DNA of 64,000 bases from Promethearchaeota archaeon Loki_b32 (GTDB taxonomy: Archaea; Asgardarchaeota; Lokiarchaeia; Sigyniarchaeales; SOKP01). Shown here one piece after another: positions 33,390-46,949 of the stretch. The stretch lies in the NCBI GenBank assembly GCA_005223125.1, contig NJBH01000006.1:32001-96000 (forward strand), given 5' to 3'. The position numbers were made by a program, and so were the translations under genes. Positions within the stretch are counted from its first letter, which is position 1, and every line of letters begins with the position of its first letter. The notes below the pieces were generated by a model that saw only the letters and a program-made list of their open reading frames with translations, did no database searches and had not been told where the DNA came from.

Positions 33390-35039
33390 TTATTTAGAGA
33401 TTTTAATTTCTGGAATTTCTACGATGAAATTACTTCCTTTAGTATAATCATTTTCTAAACGATTTTCAACCCAAATTTTACCATGATAACTTTCAATAAT
33501 CTTTTTCACAAGTGATAAGCCAATCCCCATTCCTCTTATATTATTATCTTTATTGTGTCCCTTTTGAAAAATGGATTTCTTTTTTTTGTCAATAATACCA
33601 AAACCATTATCTTTGAATTCCATTTTAACATAATTTTTCTTATCAAGAAGGGCTTTAGTAATATCAACTTGGATTTTAACAGACTCATTTTGGTTATATT
33701 TTATTGCATTATGTAAGATATTTTCAAACACATCTAATAGAAATTCATTAGCATCGACGTATAATTCATTATTAACTTTTTTGATTTGGATATCTAATTT
33801 CTTTTCTTGAGCACTTTTATTCGCAAATTGTATTGCTTCATCTAAAATCCCATTAATCTCAACTGGTTTTAATGAAATTTCTGATTCTTCAAGTTTAGAA
33901 AGTTTGCGTACATTATTAATTAATTTGACCCCTCTATCAATTTGATTATCAATTATTTGAAAAAATTCGTCTAAATTATCAAAACTTTCTGATTTTTCTT
34001 TCAATATTGAGATTAATTCTGCTGAGGATTTAATATTATGAAAAATATTGTTTATATCATGCGTAAAAATATCTTTAAAGAATTCTGCTCTCTCATATGC
34101 CTCTCGATATCTATTTTCAGATTTTCTTAATTCTTGTTCAGCATGTTGATGTTCAGTAATATCTTTAAAGCTCCACACACGTCCTACTCTCTCTTCATCT
34201 TGGATTAATGGACAAGAATATTGTTCGAATATTCTTCCATCCTTAAAAAAAATCATATCATAACCATCCTTGGATGATTTTTCAAGATTTCTAAGTTTTA
34301 ATAAGAATTTATCTGGATCATTAAGTTGATCCAAGATATAATTTAATAACTTAGTGAAATCTTTCTGATCAATGACTTCATCTGGAATACGCCACATATA
34401 AATGAACCTTTCATTTAAATGCGTAATAACATTATTTATATCAACAACAAGAATTCCATCTGCTGTCGCTTCGAATGTGGCTCTTAATAATTCTTGACTC
34501 TCCTTTAATGCTTTTTCAGCATTTAATAGTTCAATAGTATCACCTAAGCTTTGACCAAATATCCGCAAAATCACAAAATCCTTACCTTTCCATTGAATTT
34601 TCTCTTTAATTTTACTAAAACACACAAATCCAGTTATCGCTCTGCTAATATAGATGGGAAAAGCTAAAAAAGATTGGATACTTTGTATTTCCATAAATTT
34701 CTTTACTGATTGAGCTCCATTTGGTAAATTAGAAACATCTCGAATATTAATAAAACTAATTTTCTTAACTTGATTTATCCACCAGGAAATTATTCTAATA
34801 TCTACTTTTTGAAGATTTTTAAGTTGGGAATTAATCCCTTCTGAACACCATTCATGGGTATTTCCAAAAAATTTTTTGTTATCATCAAAAAGAAAAAGAG
34901 TAACTCGATCTGCTTTTGATACAATTCCCATGTCTTCAAAGGATGAATTAATCGCTTCATCAAGATTTACTCTACCTACAAATCGAGAAGAGATACTTGA
35001 AATTACTTTTTCAAAATTTAATCTACTTTCAAGCGACAC
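33390..35039 (-). CDS. Cytoplasmic GAF-PAS sensor histidine kinase
   Basis: GAF (THEWC), PAS (DGILVVD), H-box FTHDINN, NAIKY, DNGFG, GMGIGL, GSNF. Confidence 0.92.
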   Translation of the reverse strand: MSLESRLNFEKVISSISSRFVGRVNLDEAINSSFEDMGIVSKADRVTLFLFDDNKKFFGNTHEWCSEGINSQLKNLQKVDIRIISWWINQVKKISFINIRDVSNLPNGAQSVKKFMEIQSIQSFLAFPIYISRAITGFVCFSKIKEKIQWKGKDFVILRIFGQSLGDTIELLNAEKALKESQELLRATFEATADGILVVDINNVITHLNERFIYMWRIPDEVIDQKDFTKLLNYILDQLNDPDKFLLKLRNLEKSSKDGYDMIFFKDGRIFEQYSCPLIQDEERVGRVWSFKDITEHQHAEQELRKSENRYREAYERAEFFKDIFTHDINNIFHNIKSSAELISILKEKSESFDNLDEFFQIIDNQIDRGVKLINNVRKLSKLEESEISLKPVEINGILDEAIQFANKSAQEKKLDIQIKKVNNELYVDANEFLLDVFENILHNAIKYNQNESVKIQVDITKALLDKKNYVKMEFKDNGFGIIDKKKKSIFQKGHNKDNNIRGMGIGLSLVKKIIESYHGKIWVENRLENDYTKGSNFIVEIPEIKISK

Positions 35040-36549: not shown

Positions 36550-37254
36550 ATGGGTGATTTTATGTTATTTTCACAAAATGAAATGGATAATGTCAAAAGA
36601 GAAATGGCTAAGTTAAAGGATAATGTTGTTTTAAAGCTATTTACTGATTTCAAAACCCAAGAAGATGGAACAAAACTAAGAAAATGCATGGCATGTGAGG
36701 GTACGTATGAGTTATTAAAAACTTTAGAAGAACTTTCTAATGGAAAATTAAAAATTGATGAAATATCTATTGAAGAAAATGAAGAAGAAGCAAAAAAATT
36801 CAATGTTACTAAAATTCCAGCCATATTGTTTGTAGATCAAAATGATAAAGAAATAATCCGATATTTAGCACATCCAACTGGATCTGAATTTGTACCTTTT
36901 CTTAATAGTATTCAATATTTTTCAGGAGTAAGACCTTACTATGCGGATCAAATCCTTACTCATCTTAAAAAGATAGATAAGTCAAAAATGAAAATTTTTA
37001 TAACTCCGACATGCCCTTACTGTCCGGCCACAGTTCCTGTTTTAACCCTCTTTGCTATCGTTTCTAAGGGAAAAGTTACGGCGGAAGTGATTGATGTTAA
37101 CTTGAACCCGGATTTAGGAATGAAATATCAAGTACAAGGAGTACCTCATACAGTTGTCAATGAGAAAGACCACATATATGGAATGTTTAGTCCCCAAGAT
37201 TTATTAGATAAATTAACTAAGGGACAGAGAGATTTTGGTGGAATGTATGCATAG
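36550..37254 (+). CDS. Protein disulfide oxidoreductase (two thioredoxin folds), copy 1
   Basis: CMAC and CPYC sites, GVP. Confidence 0.88.
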   Translation: MGDFMLFSQNEMDNVKREMAKLKDNVVLKLFTDFKTQEDGTKLRKCMACEGTYELLKTLEELSNGKLKIDEISIEENEEEAKKFNVTKIPAILFVDQNDKEIIRYLAHPTGSEFVPFLNSIQYFSGVRPYYADQILTHLKKIDKSKMKIFITPTCPYCPATVPVLTLFAIVSKGKVTAEVIDVNLNPDLGMKYQVQGVPHTVVNEKDHIYGMFSPQDLLDKLTKGQRDFGGMYA

Positions 37255-37272
37255 GAAAGGTGATTCATAAAA

Positions 37273-37956
37273 ATGTCTTCAGACGATCGATATAAGGAAA
37301 TAATTAGACGTGAAATGTCTAAATTAAAAAAGCCTGTTAAACTGAAGGTTTTTACTTCACAAAGAATAGGACCAAATGGAACTCAAATAAGAGCTTGTAT
37401 GGATTGTGGTGAATTTATGGCTTTATTAAGGATTTATGAAGAAAATTCAAACGGTATGCTGACAATTGAAGAACTTTCAATAGATGATAACCCAGAATTC
37501 GCAAAAAAGTTTGACATTAATCGAGTCCCAACAATACTTTTTATAGATGATAATGGTCGAGAGATAATCAGATATTTAGCAGCTCCAAAAGGGGGAGAGA
37601 TCCAACCTTTCATCCAGGCTATATTTAACTTTGCAGGAACTCCCAATTATTATGAGGCTACAATAAAAAAAAATCTAGATAGGATACAACCATCTACTAT
37701 TAAGGTAATGATGACAGAGACGTGCCCCTATTGTCCTCAAGTAATTGCTATAAGTAATTCCTTCGCAATTGCTTCTGAGGGGAAGATTAGAACCGTAATT
37801 ATCGATATCGCGGCAAATCCTGATATAGGTCAATATTATGATGCTGCTGGTGTTCCATATACTATTATTAATGATCAAAAGACTTTAGTGGGAATGGTTG
37901 GGCCAAATGAAATTTTAAGCGCCTTGATTGGAGGGAATATTCGTGTTCAATATTGA
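37273..37956 (+). CDS. Protein disulfide oxidoreductase (two thioredoxin folds), copy 2
   Basis: CMDC and CPYC sites; colinear with the upstream paralogue. Confidence 0.88.
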   Translation: MSSDDRYKEIIRREMSKLKKPVKLKVFTSQRIGPNGTQIRACMDCGEFMALLRIYEENSNGMLTIEELSIDDNPEFAKKFDINRVPTILFIDDNGREIIRYLAAPKGGEIQPFIQAIFNFAGTPNYYEATIKKNLDRIQPSTIKVMMTETCPYCPQVIAISNSFAIASEGKIRTVIIDIAANPDIGQYYDAAGVPYTIINDQKTLVGMVGPNEILSALIGGNIRVQY

Positions 37957-37957
37957 T

Positions 37958-38887
37958 ATGGAAGCTATAGATTTCGAAAAAACTTATGATCTAATTGTAT
38001 TAGGGGGTGGACCCACTGCGATTGGATGTGCCATTTATGCTGCTCGATTCGCGATGGATGTACTGGTTGTTGGAAAAACTTTTGGTGGATTGATAGCGAC
38101 TACTCATATTGTTGAAAATTATCCTGCAATTACATCCATAAGTGGTCAAGGATTAATGGATATGTTTAAAGATCATATGGACTCACTTAGTATCCCATAT
38201 ATATCAGATCAGATACGCAGTATTGATAAAGTTGATGATTATTTTGAACTTCGTTCCTTCTTTCAGAAATTTAAAGCACATTCAATTTGCATAGCAACTG
38301 GTTCAGAAAGACGGAAATTAGGTATACCTGGAGAAGAGGAATATACTGGTCGAGGTGTTTCATATTGTGCCACTTGTGATGGTCCCTTTTACAAAAATAA
38401 AGTAGTATGTGTAATAGGAGGAAGTGATTCTGCTGCTAAAGAAGCGCTGTTTTTAGCACAAAACACCAAAAAAGTATATATTATTTATCGGGGAGAAGAT
38501 ATTAGAGCTGAACCTATAAACAAAAAACGTGTATTTGAAAATGAAAAAATAGAAATTATCTACAAAACTAATGTTGTTGAAATAAAAGGGGAAGGGAATG
38601 TAAAATCTGTAGTTTTTGATAATGATATCGAACTCGTTGTTGATGGTGTGTTTGTTGAGATTGGTTCAATTCCTAATTCTGATTTAGCAAAACGTATTGG
38701 TGTAGAAACAAATGAAAAAGGAGAAATTAAAATAAATCGTAAGTCAGAAACAAATATTACTGGTATTTTTGCTGCAGGAGATGTTGCTGATGCCCCTTTT
38801 AAGCAAGCAATTACAGGAGTTTCTGAAGGAGTAATAGCTGCATACTCTGCTTTTGATTATGTTAAAGAAATGAATATAGAATATTAG
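37958..38887 (+). CDS. trxB: Thioredoxin reductase
   Basis: GGGP, VENYP, IATG, GVSYCATCDG, GGSDSA, FAAGD; ATG at 37958 preferred over TTG at 37928. Confidence 0.93.
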   Translation: MEAIDFEKTYDLIVLGGGPTAIGCAIYAARFAMDVLVVGKTFGGLIATTHIVENYPAITSISGQGLMDMFKDHMDSLSIPYISDQIRSIDKVDDYFELRSFFQKFKAHSICIATGSERRKLGIPGEEEYTGRGVSYCATCDGPFYKNKVVCVIGGSDSAAKEALFLAQNTKKVYIIYRGEDIRAEPINKKRVFENEKIEIIYKTNVVEIKGEGNVKSVVFDNDIELVVDGVFVEIGSIPNSDLAKRIGVETNEKGEIKINRKSETNITGIFAAGDVADAPFKQAITGVSEGVIAAYSAFDYVKEMNIEY

Positions 38888-39445: not shown

Positions 39446-40357
39446 TTATTGAGGATTAAGTGTAGGAGATCTAGCTGACATAAGTTCTAATATTTTCTCC
39501 CAATATTCTTTTATTTCCCAGTTTTGTTTTGTTTTTATTTTTTCAGAGACTTCCTTTAATAATTCCCTAATTTTAAGTGAATCAAAATAAGTTAAAATTG
39601 GGGCAATCACAGATAACATATATTGTTTTTCTCCATATCTTTCATTTTTATCCGGAAATGAATCAAAAAATAGATAACCTTTTTTATCAATATTCTCAAT
39701 ATTAAGTAAAATACTTTGAGCTTTTGTGATTTTATCGTGTCCATAAATCGAAGTTGCAGCGTGGAACAATTGCTTGCCAATAGTGTTAATAGATAGGGTA
39801 CAATTTTCTTCAGAGGGATAACTCTGTTTTAATATTGGTCCTGCAACATCATCCCAATATACCATTAATAAACATAATGATGGTTGATCTTTATTAATAA
39901 TTGATGGATGCATTTCTATATTCAAGGATGAGAATATTTGTTTAATTTCCTCATCAATTTGATTGGATTTTTTATATCGAGCAATTTTACCAGAGATTGA
40001 AGCTAATAAATCTTCCTTTTTAAAAGGTTTTGTTATATAATCATCTACTCCTAACATTTTACCCAATCGAATATCTTCAGGAGTAGATTTTGCGGTTAGA
40101 AATAAGAAAGGAATACGACTCAATTTTGAGTTAGATGAAACAGCAGCAAAAAACTCATAGCCATTCATGACTGGCATCATTATATCGCTTATTATTATAT
40201 CAGGAACTTTCTCTAATGTCAAAAGCATTTTAAGTGCTGTTTTACCACTAATTGCTGTGATTATATTGTAGTCACTTGCTTCAAGAATAAGTTTTAGATT
40301 AAATAAAATATCCTCGTTATCATCAACAACCATTAACAAGGGCTTTGAATCTGACAT
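39446..40357 (-). CDS. Response regulator: receiver plus longin/uDENN-like output domain
   Basis: Receiver VDDN, SDIMMP, LTAK, YITKPF; C-terminal LLMVYWDDVAGPILKQSYP resembles the uDENN/longin first hairpin. Confidence 0.85.
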   Translation of the reverse strand: MSDSKPLLMVVDDNEDILFNLKLILEASDYNIITAISGKTALKMLLTLEKVPDIIISDIMMPVMNGYEFFAAVSSNSKLSRIPFLFLTAKSTPEDIRLGKMLGVDDYITKPFKKEDLLASISGKIARYKKSNQIDEEIKQIFSSLNIEMHPSIINKDQPSLCLLMVYWDDVAGPILKQSYPSEENCTLSINTIGKQLFHAATSIYGHDKITKAQSILLNIENIDKKGYLFFDSFPDKNERYGEKQYMLSVIAPILTYFDSLKIRELLKEVSEKIKTKQNWEIKEYWEKILELMSARSPTLNPQ

Positions 40358-40430
40358 AGGGGAATTTCATCTATATTACTGATATCAATAATATTGATCC
40401 AATCAATATTTATAATTTTTTTAGATCAAT

Positions 40431-42953
40431 TTAGTATGGTAGAAATAGATGAAATGTCGTTCCTTTCCCTAATTCACTCTCCACAATGATACTTCCTTTA
40501 TGAGCATCAATTATATCTTTTGCGATTGCTAATCCTAATCCTGTGCCAGCAATTTCAATTACATTGCTTGAACGGAAAAATCGTTCAAAAATGTGAGGTA
40601 AATCTTCCTTGGAGATCCCACGACCACTATCTTTAAATTGTAAGAGAACTCCTGATTTTCCATTTAAATTATATTTACCCTGGTAATTATCAATAGATTT
40701 TATTTTTACTTTTGAATATTCTTCTGAATATTTAATAGTATTATCGATAATAATTCGGAAAACTTGATCAATCCTTTTTGGATCCCCTCTTAAAAGAATG
40801 TTATCATCCACATTAACTTCAAAATCTATATTCTTTTCCTGACCTATTGGTTCCATGAGATATAAGATTTCATTAATAATCTCTAAAGGTTTATATTCTT
40901 TCCATTCCAATTCTAATCGATTTTCATCAATTCTTGAAATTGTTAATATATCCTCTGCTAAATCATTAAGTAGATGAATATTTTTTGAGATTCCATCCAT
41001 TAATTTCTCTTCTAAATCTTCGTTGAGAACATCTTTATGTTTAGTTAAATATTCCATCGACATTAATAAGACTGTAATTGGAGTCCGTAATTCATGTGAA
41101 ACAGTTGAAATTAATTGTGATAATCTCTCTTCTGCTCTTTTACGTTCTGTTATATCCAATCCATAAATATTTACATAATCCACATTTTTTACGGGAGTAA
41201 CAACCAAAGTGTAAGTTCGACCATTTAAATTTACTTCAAGATCTATATTCACTTTTTTACTTAGAACTCTATTAATAGAGTCCTTTAATATTTTAGGGGT
41301 TGGACTTCCTTCTTCAATATTGAATAGCTCTCTACCCATTTTATTAGTGTAGATTACCAGTTTATTATTTATTCGCAAAACGGGGTTAGGATTTTCAGAT
41401 GGGAACTTTGATAAATTTCTAATTTTTTCTTCAGCTTTTTTTCTTTCAGTGATGTCTCTAAATGTCGATTGAAAAAATATCCTTCCAGATAATTTTATAA
41501 CTTTTGCTGTTACAAAAACATCTATTATTTCTCCATTTTTTCTACGGAATTTTGTTTCAAAATCATCTCTACCTTCTCTCAATAATTTTTCTACATGAGC
41601 TTTTGTCTCTTCTGTGTTTTCTGTCATATCATAGTCATTTATTTGTAATTTTTGGAATTCATCACGCGAATATCCTAAAATATTACATACTACATCGTTA
41701 AATTCAACTGCTCTGAAAGTTTCAGGATCTAAAATAACAATACCATCAGGAAACTGTTCAAAAGTTGTACGATAACGAAGTTCAGCTTCTTGAAGTAGTG
41801 ATTCAGATTTTATTTTCTCAGTAATATCTGTGGCAACACTAAGAAGAGCGGAATATTTTGCATCAACATCTTCTATTGGTTGTTCAACTATCCAATATGT
41901 CTTTCTACCAGCATGTAAATCAAAAGTTCGTTGATATGCTCGACTGGTCCCATTATTAATTGATTCACGATTACTAATTAAAAATTCATTAGCAATTTTT
42001 TCAGGGAACACATCATGTAGAGTTTTTCCAATGAAATCTTCTGGATTTCCACCTAATTCCTCTGCAGCCTTTTTATTTACTAATAAATAGGTGCCTTTTT
42101 TATCAATCATTGTAATACCTGCTCCAGAATGCTTAATAATATTTCTTAGTTCTAATTCACTTCTCTTGATTTTTCTAAATAATAGATCAAATGGTTCCTC
42201 GATTCCAATTTGAATAATAGCTTTATATAAAAGGAAAAATGCGATTATTTTAAAGATATGTCCAATAAAATTAGGAAATTCATAAGCCCCGAAATAAAAT
42301 GTGAACGCTAATTCGGCGATCATCGTTGCTATGATTGAGGTGATTATAAGATAGAAGACTTTTTTATCAAAATCCACTCTATTTTTAATAATAATCAAAA
42401 GACAAGTTAAAAGTATGAAATTTATAACATATTCACTTACAATTTTAAACGACGTTAATCCAATACCATCAATATAACAAATTGGAAAAGAATTTGTAAA
42501 AATAAGTACTATTAAAATTATTGATATTATCAAATAAAAAATAGGAAGAAAAATTGATTTTACACTCCTTTTAATCATTAATGAAGCGAAGACACAAGAT
42601 CCTGCTTGAAGATATCTGGCTGCTATCCATAAAGATGTCGCAAGATTTGTCCCCCAATCCTCAAAAATCGGCAAACCAGGATAAGCAAGAGTATGAATTA
42701 CGTCAATAATTCCGATAAAAAGTGAGGATACTCCAAGAATTGAAAAAAAGGAATTTTTCATATATTTACGGGAGTTCCACCCAACTAAAAATACGCCTCC
42801 TGCAATTACAATACTAAATATCTCCGCGATACTATGAAATAGTAAGTAATCATAGAGACTTGTAAGGTAGACTAATAAGATTCCTATAAGAAGAACAGAA
42901 ATTTCTATAATTTCTAGATTCAGTTTATGTGAAGATTTATGTTCTTTTGACAT
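40431..42953 (-). CDS. Membrane sensor histidine kinase, MASE3-PAS-PAS-HisKA-HATPase
   Basis: MASE3 (YLLFHSIAEIFS, HTLAY, WIAARY, GHIFK), PAS repeats ending DITE, SHELRTP, DSGRG, GTGLGL. Confidence 0.92.
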   Translation of the reverse strand: MSKEHKSSHKLNLEIIEISVLLIGILLVYLTSLYDYLLFHSIAEIFSIVIAGGVFLVGWNSRKYMKNSFFSILGVSSLFIGIIDVIHTLAYPGLPIFEDWGTNLATSLWIAARYLQAGSCVFASLMIKRSVKSIFLPIFYLIISIILIVLIFTNSFPICYIDGIGLTSFKIVSEYVINFILLTCLLIIIKNRVDFDKKVFYLIITSIIATMIAELAFTFYFGAYEFPNFIGHIFKIIAFFLLYKAIIQIGIEEPFDLLFRKIKRSELELRNIIKHSGAGITMIDKKGTYLLVNKKAAEELGGNPEDFIGKTLHDVFPEKIANEFLISNRESINNGTSRAYQRTFDLHAGRKTYWIVEQPIEDVDAKYSALLSVATDITEKIKSESLLQEAELRYRTTFEQFPDGIVILDPETFRAVEFNDVVCNILGYSRDEFQKLQINDYDMTENTEETKAHVEKLLREGRDDFETKFRRKNGEIIDVFVTAKVIKLSGRIFFQSTFRDITERKKAEEKIRNLSKFPSENPNPVLRINNKLVIYTNKMGRELFNIEEGSPTPKILKDSINRVLSKKVNIDLEVNLNGRTYTLVVTPVKNVDYVNIYGLDITERKRAEERLSQLISTVSHELRTPITVLLMSMEYLTKHKDVLNEDLEEKLMDGISKNIHLLNDLAEDILTISRIDENRLELEWKEYKPLEIINEILYLMEPIGQEKNIDFEVNVDDNILLRGDPKRIDQVFRIIIDNTIKYSEEYSKVKIKSIDNYQGKYNLNGKSGVLLQFKDSGRGISKEDLPHIFERFFRSSNVIEIAGTGLGLAIAKDIIDAHKGSIIVESELGKGTTFHLFLPY

Positions 42954-43027
42954 TATTTAAATATCTTTTCTATTATATTTTTAAATTTCCAACCTATTTA
43001 AAATTGAAACTAACTTACCAAAATTAT

Positions 43028-43576
43028 TTAGAAAACTGGAGATTTTTCAAAGAGAGCATATATCGTTGTTTTATATAATGTATAAATAAAACCTGGTGGT
43101 ATGATATCTTTTATTTTTATAATAAGTTCATCAATGACCTTTTCAGTTAAATTTCGATCAAATGTTAAATCTGGATCAAATTTATGTAAAAAGATAGAAA
43201 AATCAATACCGTTTTTTATTTCAATTGAGTTTATCACTTTCTTCATGTATTCTAGCGCGATATGATAACGCTTAACGTCTTGGATATCAATTACATATAT
43301 AATTTTACTTGTTCCCTTTATATACTTATTAAAATCGTTGAAATAATCATCAAGATACGCTTGCTGACCCCCAAGATCCCAAATAGAATATTTTGAATTT
43401 AAGACTTCAAAATCTTGCACATCAGGACCTTTCGTAGGCATTGGAGTGTTAAAAGCAGAGATACCCTTGATACCCTTCAAACAATTTAATATCGTTGTTT
43501 TCCCACTATTATCTAATCCAATTAATACAATTTTAATTGAATCGACTCTTGATTCATTGGTTTTTAAAGTTTTCAT
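43028..43576 (-). CDS. Small GTPase, Asgard Rag/Arf-like
   Basis: G1 GLDNSGKT, G2 PT, G3 WDLGGQ, G4 LHKFD, G5 TTIY (Rag-type HKxD and T-S/T-I). Confidence 0.9.
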   Translation of the reverse strand: MKTLKTNESRVDSIKIVLIGLDNSGKTTILNCLKGIKGISAFNTPMPTKGPDVQDFEVLNSKYSIWDLGGQQAYLDDYFNDFNKYIKGTSKIIYVIDIQDVKRYHIALEYMKKVINSIEIKNGIDFSIFLHKFDPDLTFDRNLTEKVIDELIIKIKDIIPPGFIYTLYKTTIYALFEKSPVF

Positions 43577-43615
43577 AATTAATCAAAAATATGTTTGAGC
43601 ATTTTTTTTTAAGAG

Positions 43616-43954
43616 CTATGTTAATGTATCATGTATATCAACATCTCTTATATCTTTGAATTTCTCTTTATATATTTCAGCTACAAGTGAATTTATTCTG
43701 TTAAGCAAATTAAAGATACTTAGATTTTTAATTTTGTAGTATTTTATATTGTTTTTTTTCTCATATTCGATGAGATTGTTATCATAAAGCATGTTTAAAT
43801 GCTTTGAGATAGTTGATTGTGATTTATTTAAATTTTTTTTAATTTCTAATGAGCTCTTCTCACTTCCCTTTAAGAGATCTAAAATATCTAATCTTGTAGG
43901 ATCTCCTATGATCTTTAGGAACTCAATAACACCTCTTCTAAATTCGCTCATCAA
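43616..43954 (-). CDS. ArsR/SmtB-family transcription regulator
   Basis: LKIIGDPTRLDIL, SQSTISKHL, winged helix. Confidence 0.9.
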   Translation of the reverse strand: MMSEFRRGVIEFLKIIGDPTRLDILDLLKGSEKSSLEIKKNLNKSQSTISKHLNMLYDNNLIEYEKKNNIKYYKIKNLSIFNLLNRINSLVAEIYKEKFKDIRDVDIHDTLT

Positions 43955-44069: not shown

Positions 44070-44103
44070 TATCGTTATATTGTTATATCGCTATATCGCG
44101 ATA
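44070..44103. promoter_or_regulatory. Candidate operator: 4 x 8-bp repeat containing palindrome TATCGC-N6-GCGATA
   Basis: TATCGTTA TATTGTTA TATCGCTA TATCGCGA just downstream of TATA-like TTTAAATA (44056-44063), between divergent arsR and lrp genes. Confidence 0.55.
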
Positions 44104-44146
44104 CATGAATATTGATCTTTTTTTTATCAAAAGATGGAGAAAGAAA

Positions 44147-44659
44147 ATGATAAGTGAAAAAATAGGAATGGATGATATTGATTGTAGAATTATGGATTTA
44201 ATTCAAAGAGAACCAAGTCTTACACATACTCAGATTGCAGAACATGTGAATCGCAGTCAACCTACCGTAGGAATGCGGGTCAAAAAGCTGGAGAAGTTAG
44301 GGGTTTTGAAATATCAGGCTGGTGTAAATATCAAAACAGCAGATCTATATTTTGCTAGGATTGATCTTCAAACAAAGAACCCAAAAAGGATATTTTCTAT
44401 GGTGGAAAACTGTCCATTCATGCTCACCGCGTTCAGACTGAGCGGAAGTACAAATATTAGTATTTTAGTAGCAGGTTCATCCTTAAAGGACCTCGATCAT
44501 GTAGTAAATCATCATCTTCGAGGTGATCCAGAAGTTATTACTGTCCATATGGATATTATTGAAGATGTTGCAGGAGATCTTGTTTTACCAATAGATTTAA
44601 ACCTTGGTTATAGTAAAATCGATTTAGAAAATTACTGTTGTGGCAAATGTAAAGATTAA
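44147..44659 (+). CDS. Lrp/AsnC-family regulator, paralogue 1
   Basis: LTHTQIAEHVNRSQPTVGMRVKKLE HTH, CPF, FRLSG; start moved to ATG 44147 to match paralogue 2. Confidence 0.9.
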   Translation: MISEKIGMDDIDCRIMDLIQREPSLTHTQIAEHVNRSQPTVGMRVKKLEKLGVLKYQAGVNIKTADLYFARIDLQTKNPKRIFSMVENCPFMLTAFRLSGSTNISILVAGSSLKDLDHVVNHHLRGDPEVITVHMDIIEDVAGDLVLPIDLNLGYSKIDLENYCCGKCKD

Positions 44660-45825: not shown

Positions 45826-46365
45826 ATGATATCGGATAAATTAAAGCTTGATGAAGTTGACAAGCAAATAATTGCTCTTGTTCAAGAGGATCCTAACCTT
45901 ACACATACAGAAATCGCTTCAAAAATAAACAGATCGCAACCAACCGTTGGTATGCGTATAAAAAAGCTGGAAAAAAATGGTATTCTCCAATTCCAACCCG
46001 GTATCAATTTTAAGAAAGTTGATTTGTACCTCGCAACGGTTGAGTTAAAAACTAAAAATCCGGATGAAATTATGGATATGGCTAAACACTGCCCATTCAT
46101 GTTAAACGCATTTCGCTTGAGCGGGGAACACAATATTTGCATATTACTTGCAAGTTCTAAGCTTCAGAAACTTGATAATATTGTTAATTATCATTTTCGA
46201 AATAATCCTCAAATAAGCAGTGTTTCATTGGAAATTGTCCTTGATATTGCTAAGGATTTCATTTTACCGATTGATTTTGATTCAGAAGATCATGACCCTA
46301 CACTCGAGGATGGATGCGGGGAGAAGTGTCGTTGGAAACTTGCAAAAAATAAGAAACTAGGGTAG
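45826..46365 (+). CDS. Lrp/AsnC-family regulator, paralogue 2
   Basis: LTHTEIA...SQPTVGMRIKKLE, CPF, FRLSGE. Confidence 0.9.
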   Translation: MISDKLKLDEVDKQIIALVQEDPNLTHTEIASKINRSQPTVGMRIKKLEKNGILQFQPGINFKKVDLYLATVELKTKNPDEIMDMAKHCPFMLNAFRLSGEHNICILLASSKLQKLDNIVNYHFRNNPQISSVSLEIVLDIAKDFILPIDFDSEDHDPTLEDGCGEKCRWKLAKNKKLG

Positions 46366-46382: not shown

Positions 46383-46949
46383 CTAGGTTTCTTTTTCAAT
46401 ATTAAATTTAAATTTAGGAATTTCATCTTGAAGCAAGCAATCTGGCCCACAATATCTCCCATCAAAGTTTTCGATTTGAAAATCTATGGGAACAACAAAA
46501 TCATGGATTGATTCAATTAAAATATTGGTTTTAACATTAATAACATTATCATCACGTCTGAAACACAAATCTACGAGTTTTTCAATGGTTTGAAGATTTG
46601 ATGCTGCGATAAAGCATAGTACGTTAAATTCCCCCGAGGTTTTAAATGCATGGTTAATAAACGGACAATTTACAATTTTCTTAACAATTGCTTCAACATC
46701 TTTAGTAGAAAGATAAACTATAGCAACTTTGATATCAACTTTTTTAATATTGAAGCCTACTTGTTTTGTAAGCAGGTGTTTTCTTTCTAATTTTAGGATT
46801 CGAGCCCCCACAGCAGGTTGAGATTTTTCAATTTCCTTAGCTATATCACTGTGAGTGATACCAGGGTTCTCCTCAATCATTTCAATGATTTTCTTGTCGG
46901 CCTCATCTATAGAAAGCAGATCTGAAAAATTTTTCTTCTTCATATCCAT
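46383..46949 (-). CDS. Lrp/AsnC-family regulator, paralogue 3
   Basis: ITHSDIA...SQPAVGARILKLE, CPF, FKTSGE. Confidence 0.9.
   Translation of the reverse strand: MDMKKKNFSDLLSIDEADKKIIEMIEENPGITHSDIAKEIEKSQPAVGARILKLERKHLLTKQVGFNIKKVDIKVAIVYLSTKDVEAIVKKIVNCPFINHAFKTSGEFNVLCFIAASNLQTIEKLVDLCFRRDDNVINVKTNILIESIHDFVVPIDFQIENFDGRYCGPDCLLQDEIPKFKFNIEKET

Follow-up and report, generated by a model that had tools for sequence, protein, structure and literature searches.

A conserved Lokiarchaeal gene cassette of histidine kinase, receiver-longin regulator and Rag-like small GTPase, with a predicted GTPase-activating output

The window analysed here, a stretch of 64,000 nucleotides (nt) of contig NJBH01000006.1 from Promethearchaeota archaeon Loki_b32 (GCA_005223125.1), contains four consecutive genes on the minus strand, separated in order by gaps of 39, 74 and 73 nt. 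These encode an ArsR-family winged-helix regulator of 112 aa (43616..43954; Pfam HTH_5, E 2e-13), a Rag-like small GTPase of 182 aa that consists of the G domain only (43028..43576; Pfam Arf, E 1e-23, and Gtr1_RagA, E 1e-14), a membrane sensor histidine kinase of 840 aa (40431..42953; Pfam MASE3, two PAS, a weak third PAS, HisKA and HATPase) and a response regulator of 303 aa (whole open reading frame, ORF, 39446..40357), in which Pfam recognises a receiver at residues 9-121 only. An earlier reading of the letters alone, referred to below as the original prediction, had described this set of genes with the same gaps and had proposed that the two-component pair controls the GTPase through a longin domain; the ORFs and the Pfam assignments show that the four-gene set is real. 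The system as a whole is real and conserved; the class of fusion is already published, and the activity is predicted.

The MASE3 region of the kinase spans residues 32-254 and contains about seven hydrophobic segments (Pfam, hydropathy). Its architecture had been given as MASE3-PAS-PAS, of which both PAS domains were found, but a probable third PAS-like segment (a weak Pfam match) has to be added. The phospho-acceptor His620 of HisKA is encoded at 41094-41096 and the N, G1 and G2 boxes are intact. The receiver domain of the regulator (residues 1-121, 39995..40357, minus strand; Pfam Response_reg, E 3e-23) contains D12, D13, D58, T88 and K110, of which D12, D13, D58 and K110 are invariant among 77 homologues, and the phospho-acceptor Asp58 is encoded at 40184-40186. 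The hallmarks of a two-component system, namely the HisKA histidine, the ATPase boxes and the acidic pocket, Asp, Thr and Lys of the receiver, are all present. From these intact motifs, and from the adjacency of the two genes in nearly all type I loci (see below), we infer that the kinase probably transfers phosphate to Asp58 of its neighbour. The regulator had been said to combine an intact receiver with the lack of a DNA-binding domain, and so it proved: Pfam found no other family beyond residues 9-121 and the output fold is modelled as a longin, and on both grounds a DNA-binding output was rejected.

The output region (residues 152-303; 39446..39904, minus strand) was modelled from 94 sequences, giving a predicted local distance difference test (pLDDT) of 85.7 and a predicted template modelling score (pTM) of 0.82. 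The order of elements is bb-a-bbb-aa (E11-18, E22-29, H39-54, E63-69, E74-84, E92-101, H106-124 and H131-143 in the model). Foldseek ranked the GATOR1, SEA and FLCN complexes at the top, with E values from 2e-5 (GATOR1) to 9e-4. In VIA, an independent and wide structure search, the Lokiarchaeal longin 8YQG (Z 11.9, root-mean-square deviation 3.7, 134 residues aligned) was tied with the FLCN complex (Z 11.6) and C9orf72-SMCR8 (Z 11.3); DENND1, TRAPP and roadblock proteins were lower (Z 8 to 9.7), DENN guanine nucleotide exchange factor (GEF) domains being at Z 9.3. Atlas clusters of FLCN, SMCR8 and NPR2 matched the model at TM scores of 0.66-0.74, and an Atlas feature search, in which all scores fell below 0.8, offered a lead at best. 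Sequence profiles of the output domain matched no Pfam family and no solved structure; the best match at sequence level came from a broader profile, which reached C9orf72 across the whole longin at E 0.55 only. PAS, LOV and GAF folds were rejected, as they were low in the Foldseek list, scored lower and have a topology other than the longin one seen here. On the model, the output domain is a longin fold. The longin/uDENN fold had been guessed from an opening motif, which is indeed present in the sequence, and the guess is confirmed by the topology of the model and by the Foldseek and VIA matches to longin subunits of GTPase-activating proteins (GAPs).

The domain also carries motifs of the GAP type: W168-D169 (WD) and, before strand 2, G173-P174 (GP). 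W168, G173 and R240 are each present in 94/94 close homologues, and P174 in 93/94; among 110 distant homologues G173 is kept in 102, P174 in 101 and R240 in 75. R240, encoded at 39638-39640, lies in the b4-b5 loop and is the candidate arginine finger. By position and motif it is the putative counterpart of R164 in FLCN and R147 in SMCR8; its context, D-x3-R-x3-K/R-x-Y/F, presumably fits the fingers of both proteins. A GP motif before strand 2 with a nearby arginine finger marks FLCN, NPRL2, SMCR8 and C9orf72 and is absent from the longins of DENN, TRAPP and adaptin proteins; C9orf72 carries an additional WD motif (PMC12290439). Because of the WD and GP motifs and the invariant Arg240, the output is better placed in the GAP class of longins than in the GEF class, and its motifs point to the FLCN/NPRL2/SMCR8 type of GAP over a DENN-type GEF. 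The original prediction had allowed either activity. The motifs favour the GAP half of it; against the DENN-type GEF half speak the GP motif, Arg240 and the uDENN-cDENN-dDENN module of DENN GEFs, of which only the longin part is present. The C-terminal DENN part is likewise absent, the protein ending after the longin at 303 aa, and the cassette has no second longin gene. Judged by its sequence, the regulator would at best work like the FLCN/NPRL2-type GAPs and is no member of those heterodimeric complexes.

The GTPase has intact motifs G1-G5 (K26, T48, D67, Q71, H131-K132-D134), and G1-G5 and Gln71 are conserved. Its best solved relative is LokiRagO (8YL2; 37% identity, Z 21.5), followed by Gtr1/RagA (Z 19-20) and then Arf/Arl (Z 17-18). 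The G4 motif is of the His type, G5 reads T-[TS]-I-Y and by structure the G domain is of the Rag type; Pfam ranks Arf above Gtr1_RagA. The C-terminal roadblock domain is absent: the protein ends 8-9 residues past G5 in nearly all homologues, and the model has no terminal helix, the last helix being cut short. A partner may complete this short helix, the tail of ArsR being one conceivable candidate. The protein is Rag-like, not a canonical Rag, so that the original label holds for the G domain (by structure matches) and not for the roadblock domain. Phe176 is invariant across the clade. The closest paralogue of the GTPase (180 aa) lies in the source genome (G000) at C37:151107-152063; 21 nt after it stands an ORF of 130 aa, possibly a longin on its own, and the gene before it encodes a protein of 758 aa whose start is signal-like. 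Directly upstream of the GTPase gene an ArsR gene was found in 56 of the 72 loci picked by GTPase. Among 94 ArsR homologues 85 are without Cys, which makes a metal sensor unlikely, and the C-terminal tail D-I-x-D-T-L (43616-43680) is among the best-conserved parts.

Linkage of the regulator and GTPase genes in other Asgard genomes, a check that the original prediction had itself proposed, is conserved whichever gene the search starts from. From the regulator, a GTPase gene was found upstream in 36/36 loci with enough upstream DNA, down to 48% identity; from the GTPase, the regulator was found in 19 of the 22 metagenome loci with 4 kb of downstream DNA, including the inverted or re-ordered loci L223, L236, L243 and L245. 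Among regulator copies with the candidate finger and full flanks, 43/57 have a GTPase gene within 3.5 kb, in a sample that consists of the top scorers and in which kin genomes are not independent, as does one of the four copies lacking the arginine. The background is low, since 8.6% (3 kb) to 12% (5 kb) of the ORFs in the same genome lie that close to a GTPase gene. The neighbourhood of regulator and GTPase is far above chance. Binomial P values calculated for this enrichment were set aside because of the kinship among the genomes.

The pair also stays together when the rest of the cassette is rebuilt. The GTPase is retained where the kinase-regulator pair is inverted (L223, L236) and where the regulator has shifted upstream of it (L243, L245), and regulator and GTPase are still together in five loci in which the MASE3 kinase has been lost, moved or replaced (L158, L161, L168, L171, L232). 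In L139 and L151 the regulators have pseudo-receivers, which have lost the lysine and part of the acidic pocket; no kinase lies within 6 kb and the GTPase gene is 22-33 nt away. A second layout, which occurs in the source genome too, has the regulator followed by a GTPase of a distinct clade, with a divergent kinase. Regulators of types I and II each pair with GTPases of their own type, and each GTPase group forms a clade with support 1.00.

The longin itself is widespread. About 198 clusters at 50% identity carry it as output, mostly receiver-longin proteins of about 295 aa, and the same family also ends hybrid kinases, a receiver-less kinase, PAS proteins, an RsbRD_N protein and Rab-like GTPases, so the longin is taken to be a mobile output module. 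With weak matches included, the output profile matches 178 of 400 Asgard genomes (123/134 in its own family); the homologues are labelled Promethearchaeota/Lokiarchaeota, and strong copies extend to genomes labelled Heimdallarchaeota. The profile had no match in closed 4.4 Mb genomes of the same order and a weak match only in a closed 6.0 Mb genome. Two further paralogues occur in the source genome. One (C57:1664-5127, L048) is a receiver-longin with the Arg and a divergent membrane kinase; the gene 156 nt downstream of the regulator encodes a GTPase of 183 aa that belongs to a different clade. The other (C24:190779-191666, L049:7780-8667) has an intact receiver and the GP motif but lacks the Arg of the b4-b5 loop, and neither a GTPase nor a kinase gene is nearby; it stands among FAD-oxidoreductase genes and is a natural negative control. 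The longin copies of Heimdallarchaeum are likewise without Arg and have no GTPase near. Other arrangements of the family include Rab-like GTPases fused to the longin (P0144 in L260; L133:5990-7240), longins without a receiver behind PAS, RsbRD_N, DUF1638 or kinase ATPase domains (L080:6019-7701, L091:5492-6496, P0125, P0133, P0258) and hybrid kinase-receiver-longin genes with GTPase genes of about 310 aa on both sides (L157, L159). In L117:7862-8782 a GP-type longin is fused to a V4R domain and clustered with several GTPases and another longin.

The GTPase was modelled in complex with two copies of the longin, GTP and Mg, alongside three controls. The complex scored 0.62 and the best control 0.00; the score mark used is reached by 58/80 solved complexes and by 2/110 mismatched pairs, counts that apply only approximately to this case. 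Agreement between the runs is at least 0% of contacts, and the pLDDT of the partner is at least 74. In the modelled interface, longin residues 168-175 sit on the P-loop and switch II of the GTPase, with G173 at Gln71, R240 contacts GTPase residues 23 and 47 (P-loop, switch I) and the second longin copy contributes residues 170-174. As modelled, this is the geometry of a GAP at the GTPase active site; the model shows likeness, not binding. The claim that the regulator acts on the neighbouring GTPase is supported in part, by the conserved linkage and by this contact with the active site, which is a modelled one.

The reading that we favour is that of a phosphorylation-gated longin GAP for the neighbouring GTPase, and as a full chain we consider it evenly poised between right and wrong. 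The MASE3-PAS kinase would sense a cue and phosphorylate Asp58 of the regulator, and the state of the receiver would control the longin, most likely via dimerisation or exposure. A longin dimer would then bind the GTP-loaded Rag-like GTPase encoded two genes upstream; the WD/GP loop would brace the catalytic Gln71, Arg240 would be inserted into the active site and GTP hydrolysis would be sped up as it is by FLCN, NPRL2 and SMCR8. Phosphorylation could turn the GAP either on or off. A homodimer could replace the eukaryotic heterodimer because the C9orf72-type WD motif and the arginine occur together in one chain, and the homodimer as the active form is a speculative proposal. Also speculatively, the Cys-free ArsR with its conserved acidic tail would be the best candidate for an effector of the GTPase. 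Taken to its full extent, the proposal would be a complete path from membrane to DNA, comprising the kinase, a homodimeric longin GAP, a bare Rag-like GTPase and ArsR as effector through its tail, with the regulator, controlled by a histidine kinase, as a one-gene working model of the FLCN, GATOR1 and C9orf72-SMCR8 ancestor; in this extended form we find it rather doubtful.

Several points weigh against a gated GAP acting on its neighbour. One of the three complex runs scored 0.01, and the controls were without a paralogous GTPase, where close cousins of a true partner often pass. The pass itself may be memory, because like eukaryotic complexes have been solved (FLCN-RagC, GATOR1-RagA, SMCR8-ARF1). 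R240 is tentatively equated with the eukaryotic finger by position and motif, and sequence profiles do not reach those families. The ArsR gene is the tightest neighbour of the GTPase gene, and certain ArsR-GTPase pairs lack a nearby regulator (L225, L253). Some regulator copies adjoin Rab-like or long Rag-like GTPases, and for 14 of the 57 copies with the Arg the nearest 3.5 kb hold no GTPase gene, so that adjacency does not fix specificity. Moreover, GEF activity is the commoner one among longins (PMC10933270). The regulator might bind the neighbouring GTPase other than as a catalytic GAP, in the part of a GEF or effector or in place of the missing roadblock domain, a view to which the prevalence of GEFs and scaffolds among longin platforms (PMC10933270), the match of DENN GEF domains to the output fold (Z 9.3), the loss of the roadblock domain and of part of the last helix from the GTPase, and the example of RomRX, initially described as a GEF and later as an effector (PMC13408092), all lend weight. 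We nevertheless think it unlikely, as longins of the DENN and TRAPP kinds reportedly lack the GP motif, the model sets the invariant Arg against the P-loop and switch I, and the best structure matches are GAP subunits.

It is less likely still that the regulator is a gated GAP of broad range, with the neighbour one of several targets, or half of a heterodimer needing a second longin subunit: type I and type II regulators keep to their own GTPase clades (support 1.00), and a single chain holds both WD and Arg. What speaks for breadth is that regulators lie beside at least four kinds of GTPase, with 14/57 beside none, and that the source genome has about 66 ORFs with GTPase motifs and other GP-type longins, which also suits a heterodimer, as do the heterodimeric nature of eukaryotic longin GAPs and the tandem regulator gene pairs in L086, L090, L161 and L168. 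The neighbourhood could also reflect co-regulation or co-inheritance only, with ArsR-GTPase as one module, kinase-regulator as another and the longin binding something else. The type I loci all go back to a single cassette and mostly belong to one family, an unrelated gene, Lrp, is retained almost as well, and the AT-rich gaps of 73-74 nt might contain promoters; but the link outlasts inversion, kinase loss and ArsR loss and recurs in separate clades up to Heimdallarchaeia, and direct GTPase-longin fusions exist, which leaves this explanation very unlikely. Lastly, signal flow might be reversed: by binding the longin, the GTPase would feed into the phosphorelay and control either the regulator or the kinase. 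The longin is the regulator's sole output, and longins also occur behind receiver-less kinases (P0258) and in hybrid kinases, yet the longin always lies C-terminal to the domains for sensing or receiving (REC, PAS, RsbRD_N), where an output is usually found, and its catalytic-type Arg is conserved; we regard reverse flow as highly improbable.

Several features surround the cassette. A divergent Lrp/AsnC regulator gene (44150..44659, plus strand; Pfam) lies outside it and is its usual neighbour, present in most type I loci. It is one of three Lrp/AsnC-like genes, the others being at 45826-46365 (plus) and 46383-46949 (minus), and many relatives have like clusters beside their cassettes. The region that separates the divergent ArsR and Lrp genes contains an inverted repeat at 44077-44112 with 18-nt arms, 78% complementary, which is a candidate operator. 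A scan for sigma-70 promoters was discarded, as it gave 29 against 32, which is chance level, with a consensus unsuited to archaea. On the other side, a co-oriented downstream HSP20 gene is kept in 22/43 loci of the regulator-based set, in contrast to the GTPase gene with its 36/36. Two thioredoxin-like ORFs and one thioredoxin-reductase-like ORF (36550-38887, assigned from translations) converge on it here, and such ORFs adjoin the cassette in closer relatives only. An orphan soluble histidine kinase (an N-terminal part without assignment, then PAS, HisKA, HATPase; 33390-35039), 4.4 kb downstream, could cross-talk with the regulator.

If the longin does act as a phosphorylation-gated GAP on its neighbour, arginine-finger longin GAP chemistry on Rag-type GTPases would be older than eukaryotes and would once have been driven by histidine kinases; the output is of the domain type that turns such GTPases off in human cells. 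Gene layout rarely pairs Asgard GTPases with regulators (Tran et al., PMC10933270), and the cassette bears on an open problem, namely the identity of the GTPases targeted by the GP-motif longins of Asgard archaea and the question whether these longins work as GAPs (PMC12290439). It supplies for the question of the origin of Rag/Arf GAPs a named and testable regulator-GTPase pair, both proteins being small and soluble (303 and 182 aa), and it offers as handles the point mutant R240A, the D58 switch and paralogues with and without the Arg as natural controls.

A hybrid of two-component and eukaryote-type GTPase signalling had been put forward as not known to be described. That claim cannot be kept, since the fusions of Liu et al., the actinobacterial conservons and the Frz/RomR-MglA system are already published. 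Liu et al. (bioRxiv 10.1101/2020.10.19.343400) describe many Asgard proteins in which an NPRL2-like longin is joined to domains of two-component systems, and they suggest that such systems control this pathway. The likeness lies in the class of fusion, the phylum and the idea of a two-component system driving a eukaryote-type regulator; their text mentions neither a receiver-longin cassette in which a Rag-like GTPase is a fixed member, nor an arginine finger, nor a partner, though the exact architecture may be drawn in their Fig. 5c. No paper on the cassette or on a receiver-gated longin GAP was found in a literature search that mostly lacked subscription journals. The cassette is not a conservon, having a receiver-longin in place of the roadblock protein, ArsR in place of the CvnC DUF protein and a Rag-like GTPase. 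The conservon GTPase is of the MglA type, not Rag-like. Conservons CvnA-D resemble the cassette as four-gene sets of a kinase, a regulator of the longin/roadblock superfamily, a small accessory protein and a small GTPase, but they have no receiver and use a roadblock/MglB protein, not an arginine-finger longin, so that as systems the two are analogous and not homologous (PMC13343842, PMC13621833). In the Frz/RomR-RomX-MglB-MglA system of Myxococcus a kinase and response regulators likewise control a small GTPase via a roadblock GAP; there, however, receiver and GAP are separate proteins and the GTPase and GAP belong to other families.

The closest solved relatives of the GTPase, LokiRagO (8YL2) and LokiRagM (9M28, 8ZLA), have 340-385 aa and a C-terminal domain against the 182 aa found here; no paper on the 8YL2 or LokiRagM structures was found. 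With the eukaryotic complexes FLCN-FNIP (for RagC/D), NPRL2-NPRL3 in GATOR1 (for RagA/B) and C9orf72-SMCR8 (for ARF), the cassette shares the longin, the WD and GP motifs, an Arg between b4 and b5 and a client of the Rag/Arf type. Unlike them, the regulator has no C-terminal DENN part, is fused to a receiver, is probably a homodimer and takes its input from a histidine kinase, and unlike eukaryotic Rag clients the GTPase lacks a roadblock domain and is accompanied in the cassette by no second Rag with which to form a heterodimer. For the Asgard GP-motif longins, which have the GP motif and an arginine finger and are proposed to be GAPs, the choice between ArfR and Rag partners was left open (PMC12290439). 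Those longins are of the FLCN/SMCR8 type, whereas here the longin is the output of a two-component system and gene order names a candidate partner.

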